DNA of 64,000 nt from Euglena gracilis (Eukaryota): assembly GCA_039621445.1 (NCBI GenBank), contig CP154954.1, positions 41,161,572 to 41,225,571 of the forward strand. The letters run 5' to 3'. Below are positions 1,108 through 64,000 of the stretch, one piece after another; within the stretch, counting starts at the first letter, position 1; every line of letters begins with the position of its first letter. The position numbers and the translations under genes were made by a program. The notes under the pieces are model-generated. The model made no database searches. It was given only the letters and a program-made list of their open reading frames with translations, and was not told where the DNA came from.

Positions 1108-15532
<14,425 letters not shown>

Positions 15533-22615: not shown

Positions 22616-23627
22616 CAGGGGGGGGAGAAACTGCACACGGGCCGGTAAAAAACTGGACTGCAAAAAAAACTGAAAAAAAAAACTGCAAAAAAAAAACTGC
22701 ACTTCAACAAAAAAGAACAATAAACAAGCTGAAATGGTGTGCATCTGCAAAACAACGTAAATTGCGACCACAGGAGCACGCCCCAATTCACATAACTTTT
22801 TTGCACAGCTTTGGAGCCGATGACGACAAAATGGAAGCACTCAATCAAGGTGCACTATGCATGGCTTTTCATGCACTGAAATGCAAGTCATGTGTTTGGA
22901 TGCCGGGTCACACCGGTTTTCCTGCACATGCCAAGATGCCAAACGGTTTCCTTTCTAAATATGGGGAAAATGCACATTTACCCATACACATGAATTTTAA
23001 ATGCTTTCATTTCTTGCAGGGGATGTTCAGTTTGGAACTTTCGGTCTTTGAAGCATTTGGATTGTGTGACATTTGGCCACAATGCTTGGGGCAAGACCCA
23101 ATCTTCTTCAGGAGCTTGTGCTCCATTGCGGCATCGCGAATTTCGAAATCCTCAACTCCAACTTCAGCCAAAATTTGCACAAAAAAGAAACAATTTTTGG
23201 ATTTAGTCCCTAGGAATCCCAACGTAAATAGTTGAATCTGCTCAGGAGTGTGCAAATGGCGCTTGCCAAAATAAGCATCGTGACATCTGTCACCACAGGC
23301 TGGAGACGGAGCAATTTTGGTTGGGGAAAAGTTGTGGGTTTGTCACCAAAACAATCTGTTTTTTTTTGGAATGGTGGCTACACCAATCTCTGTTGTATTC
23401 AGAGGCAAGACAGCTGGCAAGACAGTTTGGGGCAAGACAATTGGTGGGATAACTGTAGACAACACAACTCGTGAACAGGTGATGCTTTTTCTTGAGAAAC
23501 ACCCTTCAAACATAGAATCCAGCACCAAAAAAAAACAGACGCCTCAGGTTTCCTCAAAACAGGAATCAAAAAAACTGCAAAAAAAAACTGCAAAAAAAAA
23601 ACTGCACGGTGCATGTTTCCCCCCCTG
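22616..23627. mobile_element. hAT-like MITE
   Basis: CAGGGGGGG...CCCCCCTG termini; TSD (g)tagcaag; empty site at ~18010 (ggcgggtagcaagccccc). Confidence 0.7.
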
Positions 23628-26245
23628 TAGCAAGCCCCCCTGGGGGCCCTTGCTATTCACGACCAGGGGACCTTGACGACGTCCTTAAGGACCCCCCCCC
23701 CCGGGGGTCCAGCCTCCGGCTGAAAAACAGGCTGCTGGCTGGAAACGAGCTGTTGGCTGGACTCCCCCCCCGGGGAGATGGGGGGTCGCTGAGCTCTTAT
23801 CCCTTTATGGGTAAGAGCGAAGCTCAATTCTGGGCAAAAGGGGGGGGTCGGACCCCCCCTCCCCCCCCCCCTGGGTCGGGGCCACCTCGGGAACCGGCGG
23901 ATTATCACCATGATCACGGTTCCATTCCCGGAATTTGTCTTCAGTCGCGAGCGACTGGATTTCTAGTTTCCGAATCACCTCCGTTTGACCCCCAACTCCC
24001 CACCAGGCCCGAGTTATCCAGCCGCGAAGGGGTCCAAACTGGGTAGGATTGGCCCGCCCTCCCCCTCTTCCGGCTCTGCCATTTCGCCGGGGTCCAAAAA
24101 TCGGTCAAAAAATCGTTTTTCAAAAATATCTCGACATTATCTCCGGAAGTGTCCCACTGACAAAATGCACCCTCGGAGGCCCTCTATCACCCCGTTCACC
24201 ATTTTGGCCGCCGACATGCATGCAAGCCAACTCCGGCCAAGCATGCATTTTTGCGGCCCAAAACGGCCATTTTGGGGAGTTTTTGGGGCCGTCTTTTGCT
24301 CAAAAAATCGGGTTTTTCAAAACATCTCGACAATGAAACAAAATCAAAGAAAAATGAAGCCCTTCAAATGCCCTATCCAACCATACTTTCCCCTCGACTG
24401 TTCGTGCAGCCCGAGTCACAGCCATTTCCCGGCCAATTTTGGCCCATTTCTGGGGCCATTTTGGGTCATTTTGGGGGTCAAAAAATCGATGTTTCCAAAA
24501 TATCTCGAAAATGAAGCAAAATCAAAGAAAACGTCCGGAGACCCAAATTAAAGCCCTTACAGTGCCCCATCTAAGGGCATTTTGATTTCCCCGCAACTCC
24601 CCGCCTGGCCCGAAATATGGCCGATTTAAAGCCAAAAACAGCACGGCAGGGCTTGTGACTCAGCCGTTTTCGGCCCCTTTTGGGTCCAAAAATCAATTTT
24701 TCTAAAATTGCTCAAAAATGGTGGGGAATCAAAGGAAATGTCCGGAGACCTGAATTGAAGCCCTCAAAATGCCCCATCTAACAGTGTTTTGATTTCCCGG
24801 CAACTCCCCACCCAGTCCAAGTTACGGCCATTTTTCGGCCGATTTTGGCCATTTTGTGCAGTTTTGGCCTGTTTTGACTTAGCCCTTTTGACCATTTTCG
24901 GTAAAAAAAAAAAAGTCGAAAATCAATTTTTTTTGCCTGAAACCATGTTTTTTGGCCTCCCAGCCCGGAAAAACGGTTTTTGAGCCGAAATTGAGTGTTT
25001 TTTGCCCCCCCCCAGCACCCCCCCCCCGTTTTTGACCCGAAACCAATGGATTTTGGGTCAAAAACAGGTCGAAAAAGTCGAAAAATCAAACTTTTTTTGC
25101 CTGGAACGATGTTTTTTGGCCTCCAGGACCCGGAAAACCTGGTTTTCAGCCGAAAATGAGCGTTTTCGACCCCCCCCCCCGGCCCCCGTTTTTGCCCGGA
25201 AAGCCATGGATTTTGGGTCATTTCTGGGTCAAAAAAAGCCGAAGAAAACTGAAGAAAAGGGGTGGGGAGGGGTATGGTGGGGTCTGTGCCCTAATATTGT
25301 GAGTCACCGTAAATTGCAAGTGTGAAATTTGTAAAACATAAATTACGCAAAGTTGCAATGCTAGTATTTTCGGCCTTCCATTACGTGCAAGTCCGATTAA
25401 GAGCTCAGCGCTATTCAAAATCTGGTCCGGGGCTTGAGCGGGCTGGGCTGGGCTGGGTCGATGAAAAACAAACTGTTCTAAAACATTTTTGCCCTCTTGA
25501 CATTTTGATGGACGGAGCTGGATCAAGGCTGTGATGGAGGAAGCTGTGGTGAGGGGGAAAATGCAGGGACAGGTGAGCTGGGCAGCCCAGTTGGCTGGCC
25601 AGGCTGCGGCTGGCTGGCCTGGCCTTCGACCGGGATGGACGCGACTTTATTTCACTCGACCCCCCCTCCAAGGGGGGGGGGCAAGCCCCAAATTGGGCTG
25701 CTGGCTGGATTTGAGCTGCTGGCTGGACGGACCCCCCCAGGGGATGGGGTACCTTCCAGCTTAAGAAATCCCTTGTTACTCACGACCCCACACTGGGTGG
25801 TTGGAGTTACTGATTGCTGAAGGCGCAGAGGGTTAGGGTTAGGACCGGCTGGCCGGATTTCTGCCCCCGCACGCAGGTTGCGCATCCGGCCTCCCTGCGC
25901 GGGTGGCCTCATAACAATGCCCGCATCGCAAATCCTAGCACCCGCCCTATTCCTGTCACTCCAAAGGCTAGGAGGACTCAGTCCCCGAACCGTTCGACGG
26001 GTTTTACTGCCAATCTGCCACCTTTGGGAATCCCGCGGCTGAGGCCAGGCCGGATGCGCATTTCACGCGGGGGCGAAAATCCAGTTGGCTGGTCCTAATC
26101 CAAACCCCCTGTGCTTTCAGTAAGCAGTAACACCAACCACCCTCCGACCCACAGCCGCTTGCGAAATATACATACATACATACTTACATACACACATATG
26201 CACATACGTACATGCATGCATACTTATATACATACACACACACAC

Positions 26246-26284
<39 letters not shown>

Positions 26285-26998
26285 TTCAAATAGACACAGA
26301 CACACGGTCAGGCAGGCAGGCAGGCAGGCAGCCAGGCAGGCAGGCAGGCAGGGAGACAGACAGACAGACAAACAGAAAGACAGACAGACAGACAGAAAGA
26401 CAGATATATGGCGCCTGTCCGGGGTTTGGTTAGGGCGGTCCGCAGCCGGCATGTGTGGGATTGTCATTCAGGTTGGGTTGCTTGCTACGTCCTTCGTTGC
26501 ACAAAGTGCCAAACCCCTGCAGAGATATCGGTAAATGCATAGGCCCAAAGATGGACGCCGGCACCACGGGTGTGAAGGACTCAGGTGCTCAAACTTAACT
26601 TGAGTTTGTTCATGAGGACATGTAATATGATACGAACATGGCAGCTGGGCTTCGGGTGGGGTTGCTCTATAGCAAAAGACCACAAAAGACCACAATTTAT
26701 TCATGGGGCTAAAAATATTGGCCAACCGTTCGTATTTTCAAGGCTGGGCAAGACCAAAAAGCGGGGGATCGGGATACTTCAGGAACGTGCGCATGCCAAG
26801 TTTGCCACGTTCGTCCCTTGCTCCCACTTGTGGTCCAGCATTGCACCTGGCGGAGTGGGTCACCTGGCTGTCGTAGGAGGGGAGTCGGTCGGGGGGAACA
26901 CAGAGCCGGAGCAGACCAAGCAGCTCACAAACCCGCCACTCGCACTGTGGCCGGCGGCCGGGTGGGGAAGGCAGGGAAAAGAGAGCCGTAAACCTATA

Positions 26999-27473
26999 CC
27001 CGCCCCCCCCCCCGGGCTATCGTCGTGTGACAAATTGGGCAGCACGGAGGGGGGTGGCAATTTCCCGGGGTGACAATCTGGCCGGCACAGAGGGGGGCGT
27101 CAATTACCCGGGGGCGTCAATTGCCCACCCATATAAGCCACATTAACACCAAATGGCCAACAACACCATCTGAAACACAAGTGAATGGAGCAAAAATGCA
27201 GCTGTGATGGTGATACTTTGCAGAGCGTTTGGTATGCAAAAGCTCTCAGCACGCTGTAGCAAAACAGAATATCAATCGAGTCGTGTCGGCGAAAAGAAAG
27301 TTCACAGTGCAATACTGCAAACGGGGGTGATAAATTGGGCAGCACGGAAGGGGGTGACAATTTCCCGGGGTGACAAATTGGCCGGCACAGCCAGGGGTGA
27401 CAATTGCCTGGGGGCGTCAATTGCCCGGGGGAGGGGGGGATCAATTGCCCGGGGGGGGGAGGGGGGGGGCGGG
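26999..27473. mobile_element. TA-flanked MITE, same family as 6880-7384, opposite orientation
   Basis: TA|CCCGCCCCC...GGGGCGGG|TA; internal sequence is the reverse complement of 6880-7384. Confidence 0.7.
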
Positions 27474-28205: not shown

Positions 28206-30524
28206 TCAGCCGACCTTCTTCTCCAGCTCCCGCATCTGCTCCTGAAGCTTCGCCACCACTTCGTCGCAGTAGGTGCGGACTGCCTGCAGCTCCCCCTTCA
28301 GGGACGTGTTCTCTTGCTCCAGGCTGAAGACCTTGGCCTCCCGAGCAGAGCCGCCCCGAACGTTCTGCCACCCTCCCCTCCCGCCTGCCCGACAAACTGG
28401 TGTGTGGAAGGAGACGGCAATGCAACGGAACGGCCCATCATGAAGACTCTGCGAGGGGTAACTGGGGCACCCTCGGCAACCGCCCAGCGGGGGTAGGGTT
28501 GGCCCTGGGCGGCCTCGTCCATGCGCTGCCCGAAGAGGTAGAACAGCTCGTGGCCTGCGCGGATCTTCTCAATGGCGTCCTGTCGGTCGCCCCAGCCGGT
28601 GATGCGGGAGAACGAGGCGGTGTCCTCCAGGTCCTATTGAGAAGCAGGGGGAGGGTTAACGTGGGATTTGGCGGGGCTGCGGTTGGCTGCGGCCGTGTTC
28701 ACGGGCGGCGTTGCAACAATCCACGTTTCCACTTCCCACGGCAACACCCACCCTCCAGATTGCCAGATTGGGGGCAGGCCGGGCGAGGTTGAAGGAATCC
28801 GAAGCGGGGGATGGATATGGTTCACCTGCCAACCCCAGAACAGTCCTGGACGATGCTACCCGACTCGTAGTATCTGCTGTTTCCCGCTCTTTTCACCGCT
28901 TTGGGGGGAATGAAGAGGTGCTCGTGCACTCGTCCACAACACCCCCTTGTCCAACGATCACTAATGTTCGTCTCCGGCCAGGGTGGGGGTTATGAGACGG
29001 GGGGGACCCAGGTCAGAAAAAGTTGGACAACAATTTGGCCGTTTTATGCTGTGCTTTCGGCCCTTTTGGGTCAATTTCGTCACTTTGGCCTCTTTGGGCC
29101 ACTTTTGGCCGCTGTTACCTATCCCCCGGGGGGGGGGTGGGGGGCGCTTGGCCCAAGCCATGATTGAAGGTAAAGGCAGGGGCCAATCTTATGGGGGCAA
29201 GTTTGCACACTAAAAATTTTGGCAGCCATGTGCAGAAGGCAGAAGGCCAAGTTTGTATGTAAGGAGAGGGGGCCAAGCGCCAATCTTTTTAAGCTGCTCT
29301 TGGCCATTATAAAGCATTTTTGGCAATTTTTTTAGCCACCTTTTGGAAACTCTTGGCTAATTGTAGCAGTCTAGCGTCAGTAATGTCAAGCCACCCTTTG
29401 AAATTTCCTTCCATTTTTCAGCCATATTGAGTCCTAGCATTTTGCATTTTCAGACATTTTTATCATTCTTGGCCATTTTTGTCCAGCTTTTTTTTGCAAA
29501 AAAAAGCAAATTAATGCACAATTATTCCCTTATTTTTGGAACCAGCATGGCTTCCAAAAAGGTCACATCTGACCAGGGGCCGGTCGTTGGACAAGCTTGG
29601 TTGAACGGGGGGGGGGGGGCATGTAATGCTTTCGAGCTTTTGAGCATCCCTTCGAAATCCTGGGCTGGGTATGTTGTCTCTAAATCATACAAAACCCCCC
29701 CAAGGAAACTGCCTCAGACAAGTCAGCGAGTACAGAAGTAGGAGACAGGTCCCTCCCTATAAGGACAGGTAGTGGGTGCGGGGGCAGGAGACACTTTTCT
29801 GTGCAGGTCCCAGTCAGAGAAAAATGACAATTGACATTAGAGACTCTTACAACTGACCTGCAATTGGAAGATGCTGATGAGCATCCTTGTGCTCTTGGAG
29901 ACACTGGAGCACGCTCATGCATGAAATACCCCCTTCTTTTCTCCTTCAGTCTACAATATATCAGGGGTTTCCACCCGATATATTTTTTTCCAATTTTTTC
30001 GGCATTTTCCCAAACACCTCTAATCAATCCCCCCAATCTTCGAGTATTTTGGGGGAAATTGCAAAGGGAAAAAGCAGCAGAAAATCGCAGGAAATTGCGG
30101 ACTGGAAAATTTGGTGCGGATGAAAATTCGGCATGGAAAGTTGCGAGAGAACTGTGGATATCAATCGCCCTCCGGAGAATGTTCAAGCTTGAGCACTCAC
30201 ACAACACACACAACACAACACACACACACAACGCACACAACGCACACAACGCACACAACGCACACAACACACACGGCACACTGTGTGGTACACACCTTGT
30301 AGTGGAGGAAGAAGTTGTGGATCTCCTCCTTGACGTGGGCGGGCAGTGTGTCCAGGTCCTGGATCTCATCCATGCGCGGCTCCTTCACCGCCACGGCGAT
30401 GATCTTCGTGTCGGGGCCGCGCTCGTCGACCAGGGAGAGCATGGCCACTGCCCGCACAGCCACCACGCACTGGAAGTGCAGCGGCCGCGGACCCCCCCAC
30501 TGGCTGCCAACAGGTCTGTGTCGC

Positions 30525-30619
<95 letters not shown>

Positions 30620-30623
30620 TGTG

Positions 30624-30667
<44 letters not shown>

Positions 30668-30701
30668 TGTGTGTGTGTGCATGCGTGCGTGCGTGCGTGT
30701 G

Positions 30702-30741
<40 letters not shown>

Positions 30742-33700
30742 TGTGTGCGTGCGTGCGTGTGTGCGTGCGTGCGTGTGTGCGTGTGCTGGTGTGCCAATGG
30801 ATGAGTGGGTGGGTGGGTGGGTGGGAGGACATCAAGGGAGGTAACCCCCAAAATAACCTGGCGGGTTGCCAGGTTATTGGAACCAACTTTTGCCCCCCCC
30901 CTGCCAGGTTTTTTGGGCCCTTTTTTCAGCGCCGTAAAGTATTTTTGCTAAAAAGGGGGTGCCAAGCTACCGGAACCTCCCCCCTCCAGGTTATTCGGCC
31001 ACTGCCAGGAGCAAGGCCCCGCCAGATTATTGGGGGGGGGGGGTTAGGGTGTGATGCGAGGGAGGAGGGTTCCGAAACCCCTTTGCTTCAAACCAGAAAA
31101 GAGCCGGTTTTGCTACTGTTTATGTGTAAAAGCTAGTCACCATTCTGCTTTGTATTGTCCACTGATTGTTTACTGATCTGTCAAAAAAGCTGGATAACAC
31201 GATTTGGGGGACACTTTTGAAACCCCCAAAATAACAGCAAACCCCCCAAAATGCCTGGTGCTTTGGGCCAGGCACTTTTCCCGAAGGCCGATCCACCCCT
31301 CCACCCTCCCTCCCACCCTCCCTCAACCCAAAGGGGGGCATTTGGAACTCCCCTCCCCTTAGGGCAGGGGGATCGTCAGACGTCCCCCACCCCATTCAAA
31401 ACTAGCGATCACATTACATTATACATCACATTTACATTATACACCCTAACGTCAGGGAACACAGTGAGGGGTTGCCTTGACCCTACCCCCCCCCCTCCAT
31501 ACAATTTTTTGCCGACCCCCCCCTGGGGGGGGGGGGGGGAGGCCGCTCCACTTTTCGAAAAACCAGTCAGTCACTTTTTTGGGGAAATTCTGGAATCCAA
31601 AAGAAACTTGACCAAAAACATGAAGAAAAAAAACTCCAAAAAAAATTTCCGGCGCCTTCGGCGCCGAGTCACTTTAGTGGTTTTTTGCCGACCCCCCTCC
31701 CCTCGGGGGGAAGGGGTCCGGGCCAAAAACCAGTCAGTCACTCTGAAAAAACCAGCCACCCACCCCCCCCAGGGGGTCGGCCAGTGACTAAGTGGTTGTA
31801 AGCCCCCCTCCCCCAATCAACCCATAACAGACAATGGGGAGGCCCAGGTGGGAATGAGGAGAGGATGAGGACGTCCATCGGGTTGCCGTCGGAGCCCAGT
31901 GTCTGGGGAATGAAGCCATAGTTCCCAGGGTAGAAGGCTGAGGAGTGACCCCACCGCCCCAGCCACAGCCACAAGGTGGGGGGGGGGGATGCCTGGTCTT
32001 GGTATGGGAATGGCCAAAAAAAAAAACACCTGGCACCGCGGAAAATTGGTTATTTTGATTTTGGTGGTTTGCCAAAAATTTGCCAAAAAAAATTGGCCAC
32101 TTTGAGGGGGGGTACCCTCAAATTGGCCATTTTCCTTTGGCGCCTTTGGCGCCAAAAGTGCCCCCCCCCAAAGTGCCCCCCCAGTTCCCATGGACCCAAA
32201 AGGGGGAACGGGGGGCAAGGGGGTTACCATGTTAAAATAGTAATGAAAATCGCTCACAAAAAGAAGATTTGTGACCACAAACCTCCACCTACCATGTACC
32301 CCCCCCCTGTACCAGGATACTGGAAGGCCTGGGGGGGGGGGTCAGACCCCCCACCACCCGGGACCATGGCACTGGCGCAAAGAAAACTCCTTAGCTGCCA
32401 AAGGCGCCAAAGGAAAATTTGACCTAAAAAAGCGGCGCCCCCAGAAATATGCCAAGGGAAGATATGGAAAAGCCTGGTGGGGGGGGGTAGACCGCCCCCA
32501 CCCACCAGGATGGGGGAAGGGGGGCCAACCGCCCACCCACCACCCGGTTGCGGAGACTCCCGTACAACCCTGCAGTTGGGCGCGGGCGGATTTGGTGTGG
32601 TTGGGGCGGCGGCTGGAACACGCGGTCCAGCTTCAACAGGCCGACCTCCTTGCTGAATTTGTACTTGTTGGAAGAGCCCTTCGGGTTCTCGATGACGGCG
32701 TTGACCACCTTCGGCGCCTCCACCCCAATGTCCCCTGCGAGCCCCCCTGCGGGTCCCTGCCCGACCCCCATGCTATCAGCTCCAATAAGTGTCCTTCAGT
32801 TGAACACGAGCCACGGTGCTCTGCGTCACACTGAACTGGTTAATTGCCATGGGGAACGCACCTTGCCCCACACACTGCAAATTAGAAGGAAAAGGCACGA
32901 TGCCAAAACGATGGTGAGGAAAACACATGCATTTTCGCGTCGGCAAGTCACAGCCTTACTGCACACAGACAGACACGCACCAGACTCGGGAGTGGGGTTT
33001 GGTCACTCTTTCCTTTCCTTCTGTTCAATTCTGCCCCGGTCCATTTTCTTCCATCATTTTTATTCGGCTCTGCTTCGTTTTTGCCTCCAGCGGTGGAAGG
33101 GACTCGGCCGCGCCGAGAGCACCTGACCCGCAACCCGGAAGCCCTGTCTGGGCACCTTTGTGATACAAGCAGTCGTCAGGAACAGCGAAACCATGCAATA
33201 TGGAATATTTTTTAACATCCCTTTTTTCTCACAGAGCGATGGTCGGACATGTCCAAGATATGGTGGTGACAAGTTGGGTCACATTTTGGGGAAATGGGCC
33301 TAAATGGCCCATTTTCCCTTGGTGTGGCGTTTCCAGGCTGCTTTTGGAAATTTTCCGCATCGTGGTTTTTCATTTTCACCGCATGCGCCGATGAATCCCT
33401 CGGTGTGCTTTGGGGGGCCTTTGGGGGGGGGGGGAGGGGCAGGGCCAGCTCGGCCGAGGTGGTACAGGCGGGGGACGTTGATGAAGTCCGTGGCGGTGCG
33501 GTCGTACGTCGCGGCCGCGTCGAGCACCTCCTGGATGGCGGCCTTCTTGTTGCGCCAGCCGGTCACCTTTGACCACTTGTCCTTCTCCAGCGACTTGTAC
33601 GTCTCGAAGAAGTGCTGGATCTCCACCTTGACGTGCTCCCCGATGTCCGTTGGGGGCCCGGCGGGGTCCTGTGTTCATGCTTTCCGATGCGGGAGGGGCA

Positions 33701-36700
33701 GACCCAAACGAGACATCAATAGGAGGAGTGTGCGACACAGCAACCCCCTGGAGGATAGAGTTGCCAAACGATGTCTGGCTGCCAAGAGGGCCAAATCCCA
33801 CCCAAATATAAGACCGTGGATCCTCTTTTTGGGTCCGTTGCTGAAAATCCCAAAAGAGGTCTTGTTTTGGGGGGTGGTCCATTTTTTCGATTTTTGCTGT
33901 AAAATCGTTCAAAAAAGAGTTCCCACGGGAGAGTCCAAAAGCAGATTCAAAAAAAGCAAGATTCTTGGAAATGAGCGAAAAAATTCTCAAAAATGCCACA
34001 TTCAACCACTGAAAAAAATGGCAAATAAAAAAATACGAATAAATTGCACATTGTGGTGCACTTTTACAAATTCAGGGAGTTTGCCTTTCAAATTCTTTCA
34101 AGAATCCTGGGAGGGTCTCATTTCGGGGGGGTCTGGTTTTTCTGGGCTTTTTCTGCTGAAAATCAGTCGAGGGGGTCTTGTTTTGGGAGAGGTTAAAACC
34201 CACCGGGGGCAGGTCGTTGACCTCCAGGAAGCGGGGGTCCTGGTGGACCACGGCCAGCAGCTTTGCGTCGGCGCCCTTCTCGTCCGCCATGTCCAGCACT
34301 CCGATGACGCGCGCGTCGGCCACCGTGCCCGGGGCGAGGGAGAAGGTGGGGGCAGGGGGGACGTCGAGAGGCCGGGGTGCCGGACGTTGCCGAGGTGCGA
34401 GGGAATTGGGTGGATGTGATGCGCACCAATTGTGCATCAGTTGTGTCACTGGGCGGTCGCTGTGGTTGACAATGGGCTGAGGCGCATGAATGCGCCTCCG
34501 TCTTTTGTTCGGTTCTGTGCATTTTGGTCTTCGTGCCCATCAAAGAGAAAGGGGGGGGTAGGTGGGTGTGGGTGGGTCAGTGTGTTGTGTATTGTGTGTT
34601 TGTGTGTGTTGTGTGTGGTTGTGTCTGTGGGTGGGTGGGTGGGTGGGTGGGTGGGTGGGTGGGTGGGTGGTTGGCGTGTATGGTCTGCATGTGTGTGGAT
34701 GCGCGGTTTGAAAATACCTTAGCACTGCTGAGTGTGCAAAACACAACAAAAAGCATTGGCACGTAACTGAAAAAAAATGAGGATGCGGTGGAGATCAGCG
34801 GGAGGTTTGCTGTGGGAGGTTGGGTTGCGTTTGGTTTGTCGGCCACGGCCAACCGAGTTCAAAGAAAAATTATCTGGTTGGAATTTGGCACCCGCGGCGG
34901 TCAGCCGCCACCAGCCAGAAATCCAACCATGGACGTTGCTGGCAATGCAATGCTTGGAACTGCAGCCGGCCGCAGCCAGCTGCGGCCGGACATGAGCCCA
35001 ACCAGAGAGCTCCCCCAGATTGCAATGTGTGGTCATATTTGCGTGATAAATTGGCCCCTGCTGGGTACCAGTTGCCCCAGACAGCCGCCCAAATAGGGGT
35101 AATACACATGGAGAACCCTCAGTCGGTGCCTTTGGCGCGTCGATCGGGTCCACCCATTTTGCCCTAGTTGGGTGGCTCTTTGGGTTTGCTGTGCACCTTG
35201 TGGAGACCAATGTAATAATGGACAGGTCCAACTGTTTTTATTAGAATCCTAACCGTAACCCTATTCCTTTAAATAATTTCATCAACTGCGTAATTACTCA
35301 ACAATTGGTCGGCTGGCTGGCTGAGGCTGGCCGCAGCCGAAGGTGATCCAAACACAGAAAAATGTGTCCCCCCGTTGGTTGGAAAAGCAGCCAGCCGTGG
35401 CCGGCAACAGTCCAAACACCAGTCAGTTGAGGTGAAGTAGCTTGGATGGCCCTGCCACAGCCAACAAAACGTGAGCCAACCTCCCATGGCAACCCCCCCC
35501 CAGAGATCAACCACAGTTGATTGTCTGTGATGTGGTCCGGGGAGGAGGGTCAACCCCCCCTGGCTGGACAGCACCAGGATGTCGAGGGGGTCGCCGTCGC
35601 CGCACAGGGTGCGCGGGATGAAGCCGTAGTCGTACGGGTAGAACACCGCGGAGTGCAGCACACGGTCCAGCCGCACGCAGCCCGTCTCCTCGTCGAACTC
35701 GTACTTGTTGTTGGCCCCCTTAGGGCACTCGATGTACGCCTGCACGATGTCCCGGGCACGGCGAGGCCCTCCTGGGACGTTACAGTCATGAGCAGGAGGA
35801 GCGGGTTTATCCGATGCGAGTGCTTAAAAAAATAAACAACGAAAAAAAGCTATCCAGATGAGGCAGAGGGCTGGGGTCGAGGCAGAAACGCCCCTCCCCT
35901 GCCACTCCACTGCGAGGGAGCTACCCAAACGACATGGCTTGCCCAGCCGTGGGCCGGGAACATGTCGTATCGGGGGGCCTGCCCGGCGCGGGTCACGCCA
36001 AACAGGTCGCGGGGTGCGTGGTGGAAGTCCACTGGCGGCTGCTCGCAACGCTTTTGGGCGCCTTCCTCCCCCTCCGTGGCGGCCTCCGACTTCTTGTGTT
36101 CGAGGTCGCCGCGCGTGAGCACAGGCGCATTCATGCAAGGAACAGCCCCCTAAAAACGAGGGCAGAGAAAACTGGCTTTACGCTGTCCTTGCTCACCCAC
36201 CAAAAACTATTACATTATACGAAACGCACACAAGGACCAAAGGCAGCACAATCTTCATTGCGCCTTGACAAAGTTGTCAGCTGAAAGTCTTCAGCTGACA
36301 AACAACTGGGCACAAGCCCACAACTTAGGCCTTTTGAGGACTTACCAGCATGACAGCAATCATCAACGTTGAAGAAAATACTTTTTGGATTTTCTGTTTT
36401 TTGGGGGGCGATTTTTGTTACTTGGCCACCCGATGAGGTCCTTTGGGTGGTTGTTAACTAAAGGCGGGGAAAATCCTGACCTGATGCTTCCAATACAGAC
36501 CCTCGCGGCAACTTCCAAAGGGCAGGTTATAGCCTCGCCAGGATGACAACCACTTCCGGGAGGGGGGGGGCGGACAAACCACCCCCTTCAGGAAGGCTGT
36601 CAGGGGCGGCGGGCGAGGTACATCTGGCGGGAGTCGCGGAGGTCCTGCAGGGCTCGCTCACGGCCGTGGAAACCGCTCACCTTGGCCCACTTCACGTGGC

Positions 36701-39700
36701 CGGGCTTGGACTCCAGCCGCTTGTAGTTGGCAAAGAAGTGCTGGATCTCCCGCATGCAGTGTGACGGCGGCAGGGCAGGATGGGTGGGCGGGGGGGGGGG
36801 GGGGGGGGGAGCAGGCTGAATTCGACCAACACTGGGGGGTCAGAGAGCCAGCGGGCCGGCAAGCACTTCCCCCTGGCTGCCTGGGGGGATCGGTAGCTGC
36901 CTGGTCGTGGGCCAAAGTATTTCAAAATGGGCCTTTTCTGGGCTTTCGGCGCCTTCCGCATCAGAGTGCCAGGCACTTTGGGTGGGGACTCCACCCGCCC
37001 CCAGGCGTCGGATCTGGGTGCCTTGGAGTGCCTGTCCAAGCAGACACATCGGAGGACCCACAGTCGGTTGCAAATGGTCCCACTTCTTCCTCTGGTGGTA
37101 GAAGCAGGTGCAGGACCCAGCGAGGGGAAAGCCGGTGCTTTCGCCTGCGGCGGCGGGGGTCCGGACCCTGGGTGGGAGATCGGGCAGGTCCCGGATCGTG
37201 TCAGAGCGGGGGTCCTTGTGGACCACCGCCAGCAGCTTCTGGTCCCGGGCAGGCAAGGCCCTGACCACCCACCGGGCTACCCACCGCTGAATGTTAGGGT
37301 TGTTGTTAGGGTTTGTTGGGGACAGTTGGTGAGGGGGGCACGAGGGCTGAACGGGGACCCATCACGTCGCAGAGAAGTGGCACTGGTGTGGACGGAGGGG
37401 AGGGGAGTCTCCCGTTAAAAAGGGAGAGGCTCCTGCACAGGGCCCAGGGGCCTGGCCCTGCCCCTTCTCGTCCTCCATGTCCATCACTCCGATGATGCGG
37501 GCATCCGCCACGACGCCCGGCGTCAGGGGGTAGTTGGACAGGATGAGCACGTCGATTGGCAGCGAGGGCACCGCTCAACGGAGACGCTGGCCGGGAGTGC
37601 ATAGCAGACAGTCTTTCACTGGCAGTATGTGTGTGTGCGTGTGTTTAAGACATTAAATAAAGCTAACGTTTGGGGATCATTCAGTTTGCAAAATGGCATT
37701 AAATGAGCTAAATCAAGACGGTTTTGAGACATAATCTTTTGTCTTTTGTCCCTCCAGTTTCCAGAAATGAAAGCGCTTTTGAGCCTTCATACAAATAATG
37801 CAGAGGATTCAACCTGCAGCGCTTTCAAAAAACATAAAGAATGAGAATTACAGGGGAAAAAAGAAAAAGAAAAGGCACCAACAAGAATAAAATGCCCAGC
37901 AAACGAGGTATTCTTTGGCGGCACATCTCGCACTTAAGCTTTTTTTCTTTGTTAATGTGCACTAACGCATACATGGACATCTTTTTTTAACAAAAATGAC
38001 AAGATATGGCCCCAAAAACCCAAAAATGTAGGCAGGATGTGCTGTGCCAGGACGAGGAGATGGAAGCTGGGGCTTTGGCAAATAGTAGTGCATAAGAGCA
38101 GGTGTAACCGCAGCATATGATACGCGCAACGTCCAGCAGGTGTGTTTTGAACAATGGCTGTCTCATTAACAGGATATTGACTGAATGATTTGGTGAGCTG
38201 TGCCTAAGCCTGAAGCGATACCCTGCAACTTAGCTGTTTGAGAAATTGGCAGTCGGTGTGGGCAAATGCGCAAATGGGCGGTGTGCGCAAATGCGCACAC
38301 CAACCGTTTGTGTAAGTGTGAAAAGGACCATGTGTGCCAGCTGCAATTGATATCTTTGCAAAATTGTACAAGCGGCTGGCTTGTGCAAATGCGAAAAACA
38401 GTCTGTTTGGTGGGTTGGCTCATCTGCACACAACACCCACTTGTGCAACTTAACACACGTACCATTTGGAGGGTGTGGCACCACTGAACTTTAGAAATCC
38501 TTACGTGCGAGGTATTCTGTAAAATTTACAAATTTACACAATAGAACGGCCAGCCTGCGGGCCCGAATTTGGGCATCAGCAATTGAAGCTGTGAAAAACC
38601 ATCCTTGGACCCTGAAACATCAAAACAAACGACACTTTCAGGTTTTATCCTGAAAAAAACTAATCTTAGAAGTGCCCTTCACCCCCAGTATTTTAGTCCA
38701 AAAATGAGGTACAGTACATTGGCTGAAAATGGATGTGTATGCTGACTTGAAAACCCCTGTGTTCAGGGTGCCACATAATGCAATACACTGACACGCTTCA
38801 TTTGACCTCCTCAAGTACACCTTACAACACCCTGTTTCGATCCTTCGTCTCAGAAGTCACGGTTGCCAAGGCTTCAAAATGAAAAGGAATTCTGGTTGGT
38901 GCCCACAATTGTGAAAAGCAACCATTTTAATGGTTGATGCGCGCATTTGCGCACACCAAGCCCAAGCATACCAGCAATTCAACAAAGGGGGTCCAGCACC
39001 ACAGGAATACAAGGGAGGTAAAATCACAGTGTTGTCACATTCATTTTCCAACTCCAAACACACTGCCATTGGAGGCTCTCAGTTGGTTTGAAAATGGTTG
39101 GTCTGTGCAAATGCGCACATCGCCCATGGGTGCATTTGAGCACAGCCACGGAGCCTTAAACAGCAGCAGGGCATTGATGGGCAACTTGCCACTGAATTCA
39201 ACAGAAAACTGGTGGCAATCCTCCTGTGTTCTTTATCCCCCTCATGAGACCCCTGTGGCAGGATTCTCGAACAGTCCATTGTTTATGTTGCATGTGCACT
39301 TCCACTCCTTTCGTGGCTAACTTCAAAAACCCCCACAATGTGCCGCAAAACTTCAAAAAGCAAGCAAAGAGGTGGGTGGACCTGCCACCCCACCTCCAGA
39401 GCACCACCTGGCGCTGGCAGTTGTCACACAGGGAATGGGGGGAGGCGGCACCGGGATTTTGGTGTTTTTGTCGGTGTTTTTTTTCCACTTTGAGGGGGGG
39501 TAGGTCCGGGGGTTTTCGTGTCATTCTGACCTCAAAAAAACAGCAAAAAAAACACGTAATTCTCAGGAAAGCCAGTGCCCAAAATGAGAAATCGCTCATA
39601 TTTGTCCAATGCTTCTGCCTCTCACCCTCACCACTTGCAACGCCGGTGGTGTGCGAAAATGCGCACATCGACCTAAAAAAGCTTAAGTGCGAGATGCGCC

Positions 39701-40449
39701 GCCTAAGGTATTTATCCCAAATGGCCAGCGAGTTGGCCAGCAGTGACCTCGAAGGGTCGCCATCGCCGCACAGGGTGTTGGGGACGAAGCCATAGTCCCC
39801 GGGGTAGAACACGGAGCTGTGCAGGACGCGGTCCAGGGTCAGCAGGCCCCAGTCCTTCTCCAGCTCGTACTTGTTGGGGGTCACCGAGGGGGCCGGCGGT
39901 GCAAAGGGGAGGAGGGTCCCCCAACCCTCGGGCTTCTGGTCTGAAGAGCTCTTATTGCAGTGCTTGCTGTGGTTGGCCCAAGGGTGGCCAAGGGTGGCGC
40001 CATTGCAATAGATTCCTCAATTTTGAAGATCAATTCCCCTCTTTGGGCTTGGCTGTTCTGTGCTCTTTCCAACCCCCCAAAAATGGGCAAGCTCAATCCC
40101 ATGAATGGGGAGGGCACACCCCGGAAAGCATGGGAAGGGAACCTACTTGGAGAAAAGGGATGCCGAAAAAAGCCTCCATTCACAAGCACCACGAACCAAA
40201 TATGATCCAACCACCCGGGACCCGGGGGACCACTCCATGCCACTCAACGTTGGTACATCCTCCAAAGACAACCGGCCTGCTCTCGGTGGCACGGCCGCCC
40301 CCCGCCCCGAATGGCACCTCCACGAACACGGGCACGATGTCCTCCTGCGGGTTCTGCGGCAGCGCCTCCAGCACCGCGCTGTCGATGAGCATGTGGCCGT
40401 GGCTGGTGGACCGGTCGGAGCCCGTGTAGCTGGGGTGGTGGGTCGGCAT
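28206..40449 (-). CDS. ppa: Soluble inorganic pyrophosphatase (family I) with three tandem PPase domains and a C-terminal coiled coil; 14 exons, 655 aa
   Basis: Exons 40449-40307, 39882-39754, 37557-37460, 37246-37174, 36765-36603, 36137-35955, 35751-35566, 34347-34211, 33651-33456, 32732-32615, 31946-31850, 30482-30296, 28633-28511, 28340-28206 sum to 1968 nt, from ATG to TGA in one frame. Each domain has the motifs NKY(E/K), LDRV.HS..FYP..YGF.P.TL, DG(D/N)P.D, DE.G.D.K and FF..YK. Confidence 0.93.
30527..30790. repeat. (GT)n/(GCGT)n microsatellite in PPase intron 11
   Basis: Seen directly. Confidence 0.95.
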
Positions 40450-40472
40450 GGCAGGGGTGGGACCAGGGAGGT

Positions 40473-40493
40473 CTGGGGGTCGGAAGGGGGGGC
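40473..40493 (-). promoter_or_regulatory. Candidate spliced-leader acceptor of the PPase gene
   Basis: Pyrimidine-rich ccccccttccgacccccAG, 23 nt upstream of GCCATG. Confidence 0.45.
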
Positions 40494-42942
40494 CCATGCC
40501 GGCAGCCACCTACACCACACCCGCGGATGCGGTGCGCAATGGGGGGTTGAGAGTTACTGAGTTAGAGTTCACCATTCTGGGGTGATAATTCCAACCCACG
40601 TACATCAGAAAAAGTGAAATTGACTGTCTCCACTCCGCCGGACGGCAAATACCTGTGCATAGATGTGGTGCCCGCCATTCAAATCTGCATGCTGGGGTTC
40701 CCAGTGAAGGAGAAGCACCACATCACAGCAATGGGTGTAGGCCATCACACCACATTCATGAATGTAACCCCCCCCAAAAAATAAGCCCCCCCCCATAAAT
40801 AAGACCCTTCCTGGCTGGTCCGAGCAAAAATCCATGAAATGAACCCCCCCATAAATAGACCCCCCCCCCTGCCGGCGCGAAGCGCTGGATTTTTGAAAAA
40901 ATGGGGCATTTTGGGGGATATATCTGCCATTTTGGAACAATTTTCACACAACTCAGCATATTTTCTCCTATTGTCTGGCACGAAGCGCCGAATTCTTCGA
41001 CAATTGGTATTTTGGGGGTCGTTTTTTTGGACATTTTGGGGTGTCCAAAAACTTTTCCAGCAAAAATCAATAAAATAGACCCCCCCCCATGAATAAGACC
41101 CCCCTCGGGCTTTCCAGCAACCGACCCATAAATTCCTATTATATATATATATATATTAATCCTATTATGGGGGGTTTAGGTGTAGTCATCCCACCCCCAA
41201 TCCCACACCACAAACAGACGCATTCCACCCAACAAATAGACCCAAGCCCATTGCTTATCAATCTGCGGGTGGACACGCACCGTACTGGGCCTCACTGGGC
41301 AAACAATACCAATATTTCCGTCCAAATATCAGGAACCTCTAACACAATACGCAACCCAGCCCATGATGCAACCGTCAATAGGGCCAAACGGAATGCCGGC
41401 ACCCCACTCAACAACCAGGGTGCTAACCAGGAAGTTTCATTTTCTTGCAAGGAAAAAAATGCCAGGACAGTGCCACCAGCTATGGCACTTGATCCTTCTA
41501 AAATGAAGATCTGTAACCAAATGCGGATTAACTGTTGGCCACAGTTAATCCGCATTAATCTGTTAATCCGCCACAGTTTATTCGCATCCGCCACGAGAGG
41601 CACAGCCCTCTCGTGGTGGGAACTTCAAATCCTTCAGAATTCTGGCACTTCCAATCCTGGCAAACTCACAATTTCACGCATTGGGGGAAGGATATGAAAA
41701 TCCAATGTGGTCCAAAAGGCTGCCCCTGGACTCGCTGGCACTGGTTCAGTTGGATTTACCTCAAAACCGAAGGGCTTTTCAACCCTGCAGGAATCCAGCT
41801 CGTAAATTCGAAAATTTGGGCCGGCTGGAAAAAGCTGGGCTGACCCCATAGTTGGGCTCGAAGAGGGTTAAAAAAAAATTGTGTTTCTTGTTTGTTTTGT
41901 GTTCAGTTTCGAAAAAAATGCCCCCAAAAACTGCCAGTTATACAAAAAAAAACCCGAAAATTGCCTGGGTGGCCTTTCACAAGCCACTTTTTGCCCATTT
42001 GGCCGACTTTTTGCACCTCGAAAGCAAGAAATGTGTTGCCGTCCATCCAGACATCCTTGGAAAATAAACAAAATTTGTCAATGGGGGAGGGGTGTCCGAG
42101 GCTGGAAAAAAGGCTGCGCTTAAGCAACGGCCCACCATCCAAAGTGCCAAAAAAAGGGGTGAACTTGACCATACAATTTTCGCCCTTGGACAGCCTTTTC
42201 ACCTGAGGGAGGTCCTTGAGGAGCTGGGTCCTGGGCAAAAAAAATGCAGTTCCAGGGTTTCCGGTCAGCCCTGGGCCTCCCCGAAGACTTTCTTCGCCTT
42301 CAGGCTGCCCTTCTTCTCAATCCCCTCCAAGAACTTGGGGAGAGGGCCCCCGCCTCGGAAGGCTGGCCAGCCCCCCCCACCCCCCCCACCTATCCGCAGC
42401 TGCAGGCAAGAACGTGAGGGCCTCCCCCTGAAAAAGGCGACCTGACCCTGTCCCCCCCCCACCACCACTGGGTTGGCTGATGGGGGGGGGGGGGGGTGCC
42501 CATAGCGGTCCGCGGCCCCGCCTTCGGGACCCACAGCCATTTCAAAGTGTCCGCCGGGGTCCAACCCAAACCCCACCTCCCCCACCTCCAGCGGGAGGGG
42601 GCCCTCCGCGGAGCCCATCAGCGCGGTGCAGAATGCCGGGACGGTCAGCGCGTCCCCGGCGGCCAGCGGGTGCAGCGCCTCCAGCAGCTTCTTGTCCCAG
42701 TCGGCAGGGGTGTCGAGGCCGGTGTGCTCATACAGGTCGACTGTCGGCCCGCCGGTGCCCAGGGGTTCCCCACGTCCCCAGCCCCACAGGTGTGTGTACC
42801 CACACCGCTGCATGAAAGCCTTGTGTCATGTGCCATAAGTGGGGGTTGGGCCTGTATGGCCGGGCACCGAGGTTGTCTTTTATTTGTAAACAGGGGGCAG
42901 CCCAGACGCACCACACCACACCGCACCGCGCTGCATCGCACC

Positions 42943-43414
42943 CAGGGATGGATGGGAAGCCTTGAGGGGGGGGGTCGGACCCCCCCCCTCCTACATCGAA
43001 ACTGAGGAGGGGCCGAAAATTTTTCGATTTCATGGACGGGCAAAGGGCCGGAAATCGGGTCGAAATCGGTCAAAAATCCGTGATTTTTTTTTGAAAATCG
43101 ATCCAAAAATGCTCATTTTTTGAAAATTTTTGAACATTTTTTGGGGGGAAAAACACCAACACATCAAAAAATGGGCAATATGTCCAAAAGTCAGCAAAAG
43201 GGGTATTTTTTGCTCATTTTCCGGCGCGCAGCACCGGAAGAAAAATTTCTGCTATTTTTGGCACCTGTCAAGGAGGAGGGGTGGGGGTCTGGACCCCCCT
43301 CCCAACATCTAGGGGGTGGGGGTCCGGACCCCCCCCCTACCACCTTACCCCCCTAGGGGGGGGGGACCTCCCTACCATTTACCTCAATACCGAAGGGCTT
43401 CCCATCCATCCCTG
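42943..43414. mobile_element. hAT-like MITE
   Basis: TIR CAGGGATGGATGGGAAGCC; 8-bp TSD atcgcacc; second copy at 63397-63940. Confidence 0.9.
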
Positions 43415-43664
43415 ATCGCACCATACTTGTGGTCAATCACGGGAGGTTTGGCGGCCAGAGGTCAGGTGGTTGGTTGGGTGTCTGACCCTGGCCCAACCAA
43501 AAAAAAAACTATTTTGGCCCACGGCCCGAACATTTTCATCTTGTGGCCCCCTGCACATCATTTTGATGGCCTTGGCCGACCCAGCAGCAACTACCTTCTG
43601 GCGTTGCATTGCGCGCTTTGCATTCCTGGATCTGCATTTTGTAGTGTGGTGTGGTGTGGTGTCT

Positions 43665-44070
<406 letters not shown>

Positions 44071-44359
44071 ATGTGGTGTGGTGCAGTGCGGCGCGATGAG
44101 GTGCAGTGCAGTTAGGAAATCATTTAGGGGCCCAGTTGTCACGGAACAAAGGCGGCCCAAGCCTTCCACGATGGCCACAGCCTCCTTCACGGACATCTCC
44201 TTTCGCTTCTCCACACCATACTTCTCAAACGACTTCTGCAGGTACTTGCTGATGGATGAGCCGCTGTGCAAGTCGGCCCCAGGGCAGAATGTGGGGACTC
44301 AAAGCACTCATGCCCAAAGCCGAGGCCACACAACATGGAGTAACACGCCATGTTGGGAG

Positions 44360-44525
44360 GAGGGGTTTTTTTAAGACCGGGGGGCGGTGGGATATACTTT
44401 TCGGCACCGAAAATTTTGAAAGAAGAGCTATTTTTAGCATTTTTCGCAATTTTGGGCACTTTCAGGGAAATTTGAGTGGATCCCCTAGGACCCCCCCCCC
44501 GGGTCCAAGGATAAAAAAACCCCTG
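44360..44525. mobile_element. hAT-like MITE in the first intron of the truncated paralogue
   Basis: Termini gaggggtttttt / aaaaaaacccctg; 8-bp TSD gttgggag. Confidence 0.75.
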
Positions 44526-44628
44526 GTTGGGAGGAGGGAGACCATTGATGCAGCCCTGCCTCAAGTCAGCCAGCGACATTGTGCGCAGCGGAGGGCGGCC
44601 CAAACGAAGCCGGGTTTAACGTCGATGT

Positions 44629-62384: not shown

Positions 62385-63015
62385 TCAGCCGACCTTCTTC
62401 TCCAGCGCCCGCATCTGCTCCTGCAGCTTCGCCACCGCGGCGTCGCAGTGGCTGCGGACCGCCTGCACCTCCGCCTTCAGGGACGTGTTCTCCTGCTCCA
62501 GGCTGAAGACCTTCGCCTCCCCGGCAGAGCCGCCCCGACCACACTGCCACCCTCCCCCCGCCTGCCCGACAGACTGGTGCGTGGAACACATTGCAATGTA
62601 CCAAAATGTGTCTAGGAAGCTGAGTACATTTAACCAAATTGTCAAACCGCAAATTATGCCAAGGGTGCCCCGCCCACCCCTCTCAGGGTGCTCAGAACAG
62701 GGTGTTCCGCTGCGTTGCCGTCTCCTTCCAGTATTGCCAAACCCCTCGAAAAGGAGAGGGGGGCACTGGAGATGGGCTCTTCTCCCCTAGAAAGGGATAT
62801 TATGTTGGAGCATGGCATGGAAAAAAAACACAGATAATGCACATTAAATGTTATCTGTGAACCTCCCAGCGGGGGTGAGGTTGGCCCTGGGTGGCCTCGT
62901 CCATGCGCTGCCCGAAGAGGTAGAACAGCTCATGGCCTGCGCGGATCTTCTCGATGGCGTCCTGCCGGTCGCCCCAGCCGGTGATGCGGGAGAACGAGGC
63001 GGTGTCCTCCAGGTC
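62385..63015 (-). CDS. ppa: 3' end (last two exons) of a second multi-domain PPase paralogue; gene continues beyond the window
   Basis: Exons 63015-62893 ([41 protein letters not shown]) and 62519-62385 ([19 protein letters not shown]...EKKVG*); same AG acceptor and CAG/CTG intron as paralogue 1. Confidence 0.88.
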
Positions 63016-63396
63016 CTGTTGGGACGCAAAAAAAGGTGTTAAGCGAGAGGGGGGGAGGGGGTAGTCCCGGAACCCCCCCTCCCTCCTCAGTCCCGACGCC
63101 CCAGTAGGTCCTCCTCAGTCCCGACACGACGAGGTAGTGGGAAACTGAAGCGGGGGATGGATATGGTTTACCACTTGGAGTATCTGCCTTTTCCCGCTCT
63201 TTTCACTGCTTTTGTGTGGAATGAAGAGGTGCGTGTGCCCTCGTCCACAGCGCACCCCCTTGTCCAACGATCACTGATGTTCGCCTCCGACCGGGGGGAG
63301 GGGTCGTGAGACAGGGGGGACCCAGCAGCAAAAAAAAAAAAACTGGGCAAAGATGGCGGTAGTTGGCCGCTTTAAGCTGCTCTGGTGGCCCTTTGG

Positions 63397-63940
63397 CAGG
63401 GATGGATGGGAAGCCTTGAGGGGGGGGGGGGGGGGTGGGACCCCCCCCCTCTCGACACGGAGGGGGGGGGCGGGGTGGGTCGGACCCCCCCCCTCCTACC
63501 TCGAAACTGAGGGGGGGCCGAAAAATTTCGATTTCATGGACGGGCAAAGGGCCGGAAATCGGGTCAAAATCGGTCAAAAATCCCTGATTTTTCTTTGAAA
63601 ATAGATCCAAAAATGCTCGTTTTTTGAAATTTGTTGAACACTTTTTTGGGGGAAAACACCAACACATCAAAAAATGGGCAATATGTCCAAAAGTCAGCAA
63701 AAAGGGGTATTTTTGCTCATTTTCTGGCGCGCAGCGCCGGAAGAAAATTTTTTTCTGCTATTTTTGGCACCTGTCAAGGAGGGGGGGGTGGGGGGGTGCG
63801 GACCCCCCCTCCCAACATCTAGGGGGGGGGGGGGTGGTCCGGACCCCCCCCTACCACCTTACCCCCCTGGGGGGGGGGGGTGGTCGGGACCCCCCCCCTA
63901 CCACCTACCTCAATACCGAAGGGCTTCCCATCCATCCCTG
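63397..63940. mobile_element. hAT-like MITE (family of 42943-43414)
   Basis: TIR CAGGGATGGATGGGAAGCC; 8-bp TSD ccctttgg; empty site in the paralogous intron at ~29061. Confidence 0.9.
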
Positions 63941-64000
63941 CCCTTTGGGGTTACTTTCGTCACTTTGGTCACTTTGGAGCACCTTTGGGGGACAGCCTTA

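Follow-up and report, generated by a model that had tools for sequence, protein, structure and literature searches.

How are introns delimited in a gene in which hardly any of them can begin with GT and end with AG? The question is raised by a stretch of 64,000 nucleotides (nt) of the Euglena gracilis genome (assembly GCA_039621445.1, contig CP154954.1, positions 41,161,572 to 41,225,571; below referred to as the window), which carries on its minus strand an inorganic-pyrophosphatase (PPase) gene of 18 coding exons and 17 introns, extending from the ATG to the stop at 44579..28206. We consider it very probable that these are the nonconventional introns known from euglenids, the ends of which are marked by base pairing, accompanied by a single spliceosomal GT-AG intron (intron 15). 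The introns are numbered 0 to 16, 5' to 3' along the minus strand, and positions within them are counted as +n from the 5' end and -n from the 3' end; the coordinates and border sequences are collected in Table 1.

The identity of the gene follows from its product. The best match, obtained with the translation of one exon as query, was EG_transcript_1590 of eukprot (744 amino acids; P0001 below), the 98% identity of which points to E. gracilis or a very close relative as the host; three-domain relatives at 89-70% followed. P0001 contains three PF00719 stretches (Pfam, E 1.6e-156), and the protein ends in a coiled-coil-like C-terminal tail that follows the three pyrophosphatase domains. A tblastn search of the window with P0001 traced 17 exons along the minus strand between 44274 and 28209, all matched in frame and in collinear order, to which the first coding exon (MSLADL, beginning at 44579) and the stop codon (28206-28208) are added. 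The first-pass annotation, made from the DNA letters, had recognized the pyrophosphatase and had described a span of 28341-40306 with 13 introns; this span is real and corresponds to introns 4-16, with a length range of 170-2196 nt as reported, and the three introns given as examples (32614-31947, 31849-30483 and 35565-34348) lie at their coordinates with their ends, but the gene itself is larger. The pyrophosphatase motif reads GDGDP(I/L)D in domains 1 and 2 and SDGNPMD in domain 3, with Asn replacing Asp (exons 5/6, 10 and 14), and in the first of these it is interrupted by intron 5 (between DGDP and ID). Read unspliced, the gene resembles three separate PPase genes: an in-frame TGA at 36599-36601 (minus strand, within intron 8) closes the first domain and an ATG opens the next segment, and the excision of intron 8 removes the TGA. 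Relatives with three domains also occur among diplonemids and cryptophytes and in numerous transcriptomes.

The window holds two further, partial PPase copies on the minus strand, one with 5' exons (15532..12274, amino acids 1-102) and one with 3' exons (63033..62388, amino acids 660-744). No further exons of the former were found between 12274 and position 1 of the window. Together with the main gene, the two copies suggest a tandem gene array.

To define the borders, donor and acceptor positions were enumerated exhaustively within 24 nt, and those were kept which, once joined, translate into P0001 with the fewest mismatches, so that the junctions are defined at the amino-acid level from a protein that is 98% identical. 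A GT-AG solution was possible for one of the 17 introns only (intron 15, 30295-28634). For 15 others there was no conventional end pair in any protein-compatible placement, and intron 3 was conventional at its 5' end only (GT). The earlier count of 12 introns without GT-AG among the 13 in 28341-40306 is thereby reproduced, as is the restoration of the reading frame by nonconventional borders, which join 18 exons in frame into a protein that is 98% identical to P0001. Many of the borders can be slid: at least two nucleotide-identical placements were available in 14 of the 17 introns and at least three in 10, the latter compared to 17% of random pseudo-introns. In the placements chosen, the first intron nucleotide was a purine in 15 of the 16 introns that lack GT-AG and the downstream exon began with a purine in all 16, although for the slidable introns the purine was in part a selection criterion. 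Intron 15 shows the features of a conventional Euglena intron (GT...CCCTCCCCCTGCTTCTCAATAG, with a duplex energy between its ends of -2.2 kcal/mol) and is the sole such intron in the gene; its counterpart in the paralogous copy retains the AG and the pyrimidine tract.

What the remaining introns share is a helix between their two ends at a fixed distance from the borders. The best in-register helices gathered at a constant total of around 8 unpaired terminal nt. The specific frame with 3 unpaired nt before the helix and 5 after it (below called the spacers) was then scored as contiguous pairs, with G-U allowed, in any protein-compatible placement. A helix of at least 4 base pairs (bp) that starts at exactly +4/-6 and is combined with a purine at the exon start was found in 14 of the 16 introns, and in 15 when a 3' spacer of 6 nt was allowed; the lead helices measure 4-15 bp. 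The proposal that +4 pairs with -6 thus stands for 11 of the 12 introns without GT-AG in the span first described (at least 4 bp) and fails for intron 5, where the helix lies at +4/-7; the longest stem, of 15 bp as had been estimated, is that of intron 14. When the register was scanned over introns 1-14 and 16, with the purine required, the maximum was found at the 3/5 spacers (13 of the 15 introns), compared to 0-8 of 15 in adjacent registers that do not continue the helix. In 2000 sets of 15 random pseudo-introns, with the same lengths and the same number of slid placements, the mean was 2.13 and the maximum 7. Likewise, cognate ends formed at least 4 bp in 14 of 15 cases and at least 6 bp in 11, compared to 30.5% and 8.6%, respectively, of the 210 non-cognate combinations of 5' and 3' ends, even though the latter were given more placement chances.

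The same conclusion, that the ends of an intron pair better with each other than expected, was reached on the basis of duplex energies between the terminal 25 nt on either side. The mean for cognate ends was -24.5 kcal/mol, compared to -18.6 kcal/mol for non-cognate ends (standard deviation 5.9, n=240), -19.4 for letter-shuffled 3' ends, -9.4 for random pseudo-introns and -15.4 for pseudo-introns in which both ends had at least 64% G+C. None of 20000 random re-pairings reached the cognate mean, and ends of 30 nt behaved similarly. Pairing no better than that of shuffled or GC-matched controls, which the first-pass annotation had named as a refutation of its proposal, was therefore not observed.

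The partial copies provide a view on which parts of the introns are kept. In introns 0, 1 and 16 the helix nucleotides are unchanged, whereas the spacers have changed (main copy/paralogue: GGC/GAT with CAGTC/CCGTC; GGGCC/GGGCT; GCC/ACC with CTCGG/CCGGG), and so have the lengths, intron 1 measuring 1425 versus 1022 nt and intron 16 measuring 170 versus 373 nt (paralogue 62892-62520). This pattern demonstrates constraint on the helix, though not covariation. In intron 2 of the paralogue one spacer nucleotide has been lost, which brings the helix to 3/4, and the length is 1612 versus 273 nt owing to an insertion of 1358 bp. The donor of intron 3 is GT in the main copy and GC in the paralogue, and the GT therefore looks incidental.

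These characteristics correspond closely to those reported for euglenid nonconventional introns. Milanowski et al. (2014; PMC3935182) described variable borders, direct repeats that blur them, and +4,+5 with -7,-6 as the most conserved pairs. In E. gracilis, Gao et al. (2024; PMC11170887) counted 11,527 GT-AG introns versus 4,498 + 11,653 nonconventional ones (about 58% nonconventional) and derived a consensus with CCAGG at +3..+7 and CCTG at -9..-6; the conventional introns of this species reportedly use GT/C-AG (PMC11170887 and PMC3935182) and possess a C-rich tract (PMC11170887). In E. agilis, Nomura et al. (2025; PMC12501133) classified 71.8% of the introns as nonconventional, with direct repeats at 84.4%, and established by knock-in mutagenesis the code 5'-N3CDG-/-CH'GN5-6 followed by a purine (R), with pairing beside the motif required as well; synthetic introns of 50 bp were spliced and central changes of +/-5 bp tolerated, and 38.8% of the nonconventional introns fell outside the code. 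The PPase introns agree with these descriptions in the non-GT-AG borders, the spacers of 3 and 5(-6) nt, the helix from +4/-6 (+4,+5(,+6) with -6,-7(,-8)), the slidable border repeats, the purine at the exon start and the admixture of a conventional intron, as the first-pass annotation had already recognized. They differ from the E. agilis description (PMC12501133) in that the C-D-G/C-H-G trinucleotides are present in 5 of the 16 only, the remaining eleven falling into the 38.8% outside the code. The pattern in the PPase gene is thus a correct re-discovery of a euglenid phenomenon that is known, has been catalogued genome-wide and has been dissected genetically. With 15-16 out of 17, nonconventional introns are about as common in the gene as might be expected from E. 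agilis and moderately frequent compared to E. gracilis, the probability of at least 15 out of 17 being 0.10 and 0.009 at the respective rates.

Several other known systems show a partial likeness. Intron 3 resembles the 'intermediate' introns (Milanowski et al. 2016; PMC4770533) in its GT 5' end, its non-AG 3' end and its 9-bp end helix; the GC at the paralogous donor differs, which fits the doubt expressed in that paper about a distinct type. The introners of Micromonas, dinoflagellates and others, as treated in a 2024 review (PMC11282704), share inverted ends, border repeats that look like target duplications and variable length, but are mostly spliceosomal, with the splice signals created on insertion, whereas in the PPase gene the recognition structure is made up of the ends as such. 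The noncanonical introns of diplonemids, the sister group, can be likened by their description (PMC12621601), which mentions G/C-rich inverted ends and a proposed origin from MITEs, the miniature transposable elements with inverted repeats.

Based on the above, removal may be envisaged as follows. The two ends of an intron would pair in the pre-mRNA, with the helix starting at +4 and -6, and the end of the helix would serve as a ruler for the removal machinery, which would place the 5' cut 3 nt upstream of the helix and the 3' cut 5 nt (occasionally 6 nt) downstream of it, each time before a purine, after which the exons would be joined. The length and the interior of the intron would be irrelevant to removal, and intron 15 would be removed as an ordinary spliceosomal GT-AG intron. 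Judging from the literature, this copy would be spliced in this way, the introns would leave as circles and they would do so after spliceosomal splicing; the review (PMC11282704, citing a J Mol Biol 2021 paper) speaks of late removal and of full-length circles, not lariats. That cleavage and ligation would proceed independently of the spliceosome, for which we likewise lean on published work, seems somewhat more plausible than the opposite. The trans-acting factors for excision are described as unidentified in the Discussion of PMC12501133, and PMC11282704 is in agreement, in line with what had been stated in the first-pass annotation.

A number of observations weigh against the interpretation as nonconventional introns with paired ends. 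Per intron, the unconstrained duplex energy beats 93% of the non-cognate pairs in only 6 of 16 cases; this reflects the G/C-richness and the loose consensus common to all ends, and a position-specific test was needed. The whole-intron folds of introns 16, 9 and 2 were no more stable than those of shuffles (z = +1.08, -1.35 and +0.25, respectively), and in one of these three, intron 16, the minimum free energy structure did not pair the two ends; that of intron 9 does, leaving 3 nt free on the 5' side and 5 nt on the 3' side, and in intron 2 the end helix is present both in the minimum free energy structure and in the centroid. Intron 3 fits the frame only after a shift of 1 nt, contrary to the protein: the shift places the helix at +4/-6 at the cost of one residue (T to A) and of a pyrimidine at the exon start. 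Strict CDG/CH'G trinucleotides occur in 5 of the 16 introns only (introns 0, 6, 7, 10 and 16), the other eleven having the geometry with other closing trinucleotides (GAG/CTC, GGG/CCC, CGC/GCG, CAC/GTG, CCC/GGG, CGA/TCG, CGC/GTG, TGG/CCG and TTG/CGA). Finally, a wider search, in which any frame-preserving, stop-free GT/GC-AG pair within 45 nt on each side was scored by its edit distance to P0001, yielded for introns 1, 2, 6, 12 and 16 a GC-AG alternative that costs one extra residue change. P0001 differs by around 2% from the translation of the window and, judged by that difference, may stem from another paralogue or allele; judged by the protein alone, such one-residue alternatives may therefore apply to this copy.

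The rival explanation that survives best accepts the geometry and has a modified or additional spliceosome excise the introns, with the end helix merely bringing the splice sites together. The literature leaves room for it, as the review (PMC11282704) keeps both spliceosomal and non-spliceosomal options open and Gao et al. (PMC11170887) state that spliceosome dependence needs experimental verification, and the GT with which intron 3 begins points in the same direction. However, this GT is a GC in the paralogue, the 15 clear cases have neither a 5' consensus capable of pairing with U1 nor a pyrimidine tract, and the excision products are reported, through a secondary citation, to be full-length circles and not lariats. 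Given these arguments, we regard the involvement of such a spliceosome as unlikely, though worth serious consideration.

It could also be argued that the known transcript stems from elsewhere and that the copy in the window is a paralogue, silent or in decay, in which the introns would be as described by homology. The identity to P0001 is 98% and not 100%, 6 of the 50 residues of exon 9 differ, and the two partial PPase copies lie in the same window; against this, intron removal leaves 18 open exons that are all in frame, and both helices and spacers are preserved, which makes a silent copy improbable. Even so, such a status would leave the nature of the introns unchanged.

The last possibility, that an ordinary spliceosome uses nearby cryptic GT/GC-AG sites and that the odd borders are an artefact, produced by the fit to a protein that is not identical, draws on the five GC-AG alternatives and on the GT/C-AG usage of conventional introns, but is hardly credible, as the best alternative costs 3-7 extra changes in ten of the other eleven introns and no candidate at all exists for intron 10, chance alone yields many GC...AG pairs in DNA so rich in GC (3-59 candidates per intron, intron 10 excepted), and the junction residues of the nonconventional placements recur in the related proteins P0002 and P0003 where these cover them (for instance EKGQDQK, LY.L.IG and MD.AEAKV).

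The first-pass annotation had further proposed that some introns carry transposon insertions and that only the ends matter. A self-comparison of the window indeed revealed dispersed repeats inside introns. Five elements with perfect 8-bp target duplications (8/8) and inverted ends of 15-25 bp of the form CAG...CTG were recovered, at 2802-3937, 8206-9221, 12543-13900, 42943-43414 and 63397-63940. The one at 42943-43414 lies in intron 1, and the one at 12543-13900 constitutes the insertion in the paralogue's intron 2 and has its empty site preserved in the main copy, where a single TCCCCCAC is found near 42578-42586; it is the only one of the 5 elements for which a homologous site was available. 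The five emerged when the window was scanned for inverted ends of 10 bp or more beginning with CAG, which gave 154 pairs, the flanking 8-mers of the others being centred on 2/8 matches; none with 8/8 flanks was found in 20 block-shuffled windows. Without the CAG restriction (perfect 8-bp flank repeat, inverted ends from 11 bp upward) six elements were found, five of which start with CAG, and none in ten shuffles. As to other duplication lengths, matches of up to 7 bp were mostly tandem or palindromic arrays, duplications of 9-10 bp were absent from a generic scan of the window, and two cases at 11 bp resemble a tandem unit.

Elements of the hAT type typically have CAG ends and produce duplications of 8 bp. 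The elements described here share both characteristics with the hAT superfamily, the inverted ends being short and beginning with CAG, and differ in that a transposase was not found, so that their superfamily is not established: the four longest frames of the three elements of more than 1 kb gave no Pfam family at E values up to 0.1, and a recognisable protein is encoded by none of the five.

A link between these elements and the introns can be drawn from the spacer lengths. The spacers of 3 and 5 nt add up to 8, which is the length of the duplication, and nonconventional excision of a fresh insertion would therefore remove the element together with one copy of its duplication and restore the mRNA as it was before insertion. 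On the transcribed strand, each of the three elements within PPase copies has the form N3-CAG...CTG-N5 with a purine next, which is the complete published code; they would therefore be introns within introns, with predicted nested excisions at 43417..42938, 13903..12538 and 63943..63392. Nonconventional introns might thus represent the precise excision, at the RNA level, of a class of DNA transposons with CAG...CTG ends and 8-bp duplications, of which the window holds live-looking members, a proposal that we put forward tentatively and consider somewhat less probable than its negation. When the 15 old introns were screened for remnants of an 8-nt duplication, identity was in excess in the predicted block (48 of 120 positions versus 68 of 300 outside; Fisher p = 3e-4), but the excess is confined to -2..+2, only 1 of 15 matches at +1, and a shared pyrimidine/purine (Y/R) cleavage consensus explains it equally well. 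A clear 8-nt remnant is absent at the old introns of the PPase gene, which speaks against such an origin. An 8-nt direct repeat has been reported at a recently gained gapC intron, where it was attributed to break repair (PMC4770533). In the openly accessible texts, without supplements, neither the 3+5=8 arithmetic nor such element families were found, only a possible 'MITE-like' origin being mentioned, and the connection may therefore be new as a side observation.

Other repeats in the window can be described briefly. Another pair of inverted repeats with CAG ends (CAGGGGGGGGA) is found at 22616-23627; it is flanked by a 7-bp direct repeat and may be an older member of the class with 8-bp duplications. 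The adjacent segments 47655-49335 and 49347-51382, of around 1.7-2.0 kb, are each bounded by an 11-bp repeat CCCGGCGCGGA and 11-bp inverted ends, and resemble tandem units rather than transposons. Arrays of a unit of around 17 bp with the palindrome CAATTG (GGGGGCGTCAATTGCCC-like) occupy 6895-9580 and 27027-27464, those near 6.9 and 9.5 kb being in inverted orientation to each other. Long microsatellites of the GT/GCGT/GTGG type are located at 30523-30785 (intron 14), 43644-44068 (intron 1), 34562-34674 (intron 10) and 26168-26404 (downstream of the gene).

Table 1. Introns of the PPase gene and transposon-like elements associated with PPase copies (window coordinates; hyphens within border sequences separate spacers from helix strands).
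Feature	Position	Strand	Description
Intron 0	44275..44561	-	nonconventional, 287 nt; AGG-CAGGGC...GCCCTG-GGGCC, exon then G; full CDG/CH'G code, 6-bp lead helix
Intron 1	42739..44163	-	nonconventional, 1425 nt; TTGG/CCGA at +4/-6: 4 bp, mismatch, 5 bp; nested 472-bp element
Intron 2	42337..42609	-	nonconventional, 273 nt; 10-bp helix GAGGGCCCCC/GGGGGCCCTC at +4/-6
Intron 3	40459..42288	-	'intermediate'-looking, 1830 nt; GT start, CC end; 9-bp end helix at +5/-5 in protein-best placement
Intron 4	39883..40306	-	nonconventional, 424 nt; GGGGG/CCCCC at +4/-6, 5 bp; other placement 6 bp with 6-nt spacer
Intron 5	37558..39753	-	nonconventional, 2196 nt; helix +4/-7 (6-nt 3' spacer): 4 bp, mismatch, 7 bp
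Intron 6	37245..37457	-	nonconventional, 213 nt; full code GGC-CAGGC...GCCTG-CCCGG, exon then G
Intron 7	36766..37173	-	nonconventional, 408 nt; full code ACC-CAGGGT...CCCTG-CCGCC, exon then G
Intron 8	36102..36614	-	nonconventional, 513 nt; CGCCGC/GCGGCG; 6-nt border direct repeat ACCTCG, giving 7 equivalent placements
Intron 9	35752..35954	-	nonconventional, 203 nt; helix CACGGC/GCCGTG
Intron 10	34348..35565	-	nonconventional, 1218 nt; full code AGC-CAGGGGGGGT...CCCCCCTG-CCCCC, exon then A; 10-bp lead helix
Intron 11	33652..34210	-	nonconventional, 559 nt; 9-bp helix CCCGGTGGG/CCCGCCGGG
Intron 12	32733..33455	-	nonconventional, 723 nt; 6-bp helix starting CGAGC/GCTCG
Intron 13	31947..32614	-	nonconventional, 668 nt; 10-bp lead helix, 15/16 positions paired
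Intron 14	30483..31849	-	nonconventional, 1367 nt; 15-bp lead helix; 261-bp GT/GCGT microsatellite inside
Intron 15	28634..30295	-	conventional GT-AG, 1662 nt; C-rich pyrimidine tract before AG; without end helix
Intron 16	28341..28510	-	nonconventional, 170 nt; full code GCC-CAGGGCC...GGCTCTG-CTCGG, exon then G
472-bp non-autonomous element	42943..43414		within intron 1; inverted ends CAGGGATGGATGGGAAGCC, perfect over 19 bp, CAGGG start/CCCTG end; 8-bp duplication
1358-bp element	12543..13900		inside intron 2 of paralogous copy; CAGGC... inverted ends; 8-bp duplication TCCCCCAC
544-bp second copy of CAGGGATGG... element	63397..63940		88% identical to, and same ends as, the 42943-43414 element; own 8-bp duplication; upstream of last two exons of other PPase copy

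With 15-16 nonconventional introns beside one conventional intron, the PPase gene makes a clean worked example of the way in which euglenid introns are delimited. If the connection to the transposon-like elements were true, it would offer a concrete and testable account of where the spacer lengths, and the nonconventional introns themselves, come from. The fact that 11 of the 16 introns keep the 3/5 geometry without the CDG/CH'G trinucleotides argues for a structural ruler, and these eleven introns are natural test substrates for the 38.8% that the published code leaves unexplained (PMC12501133).

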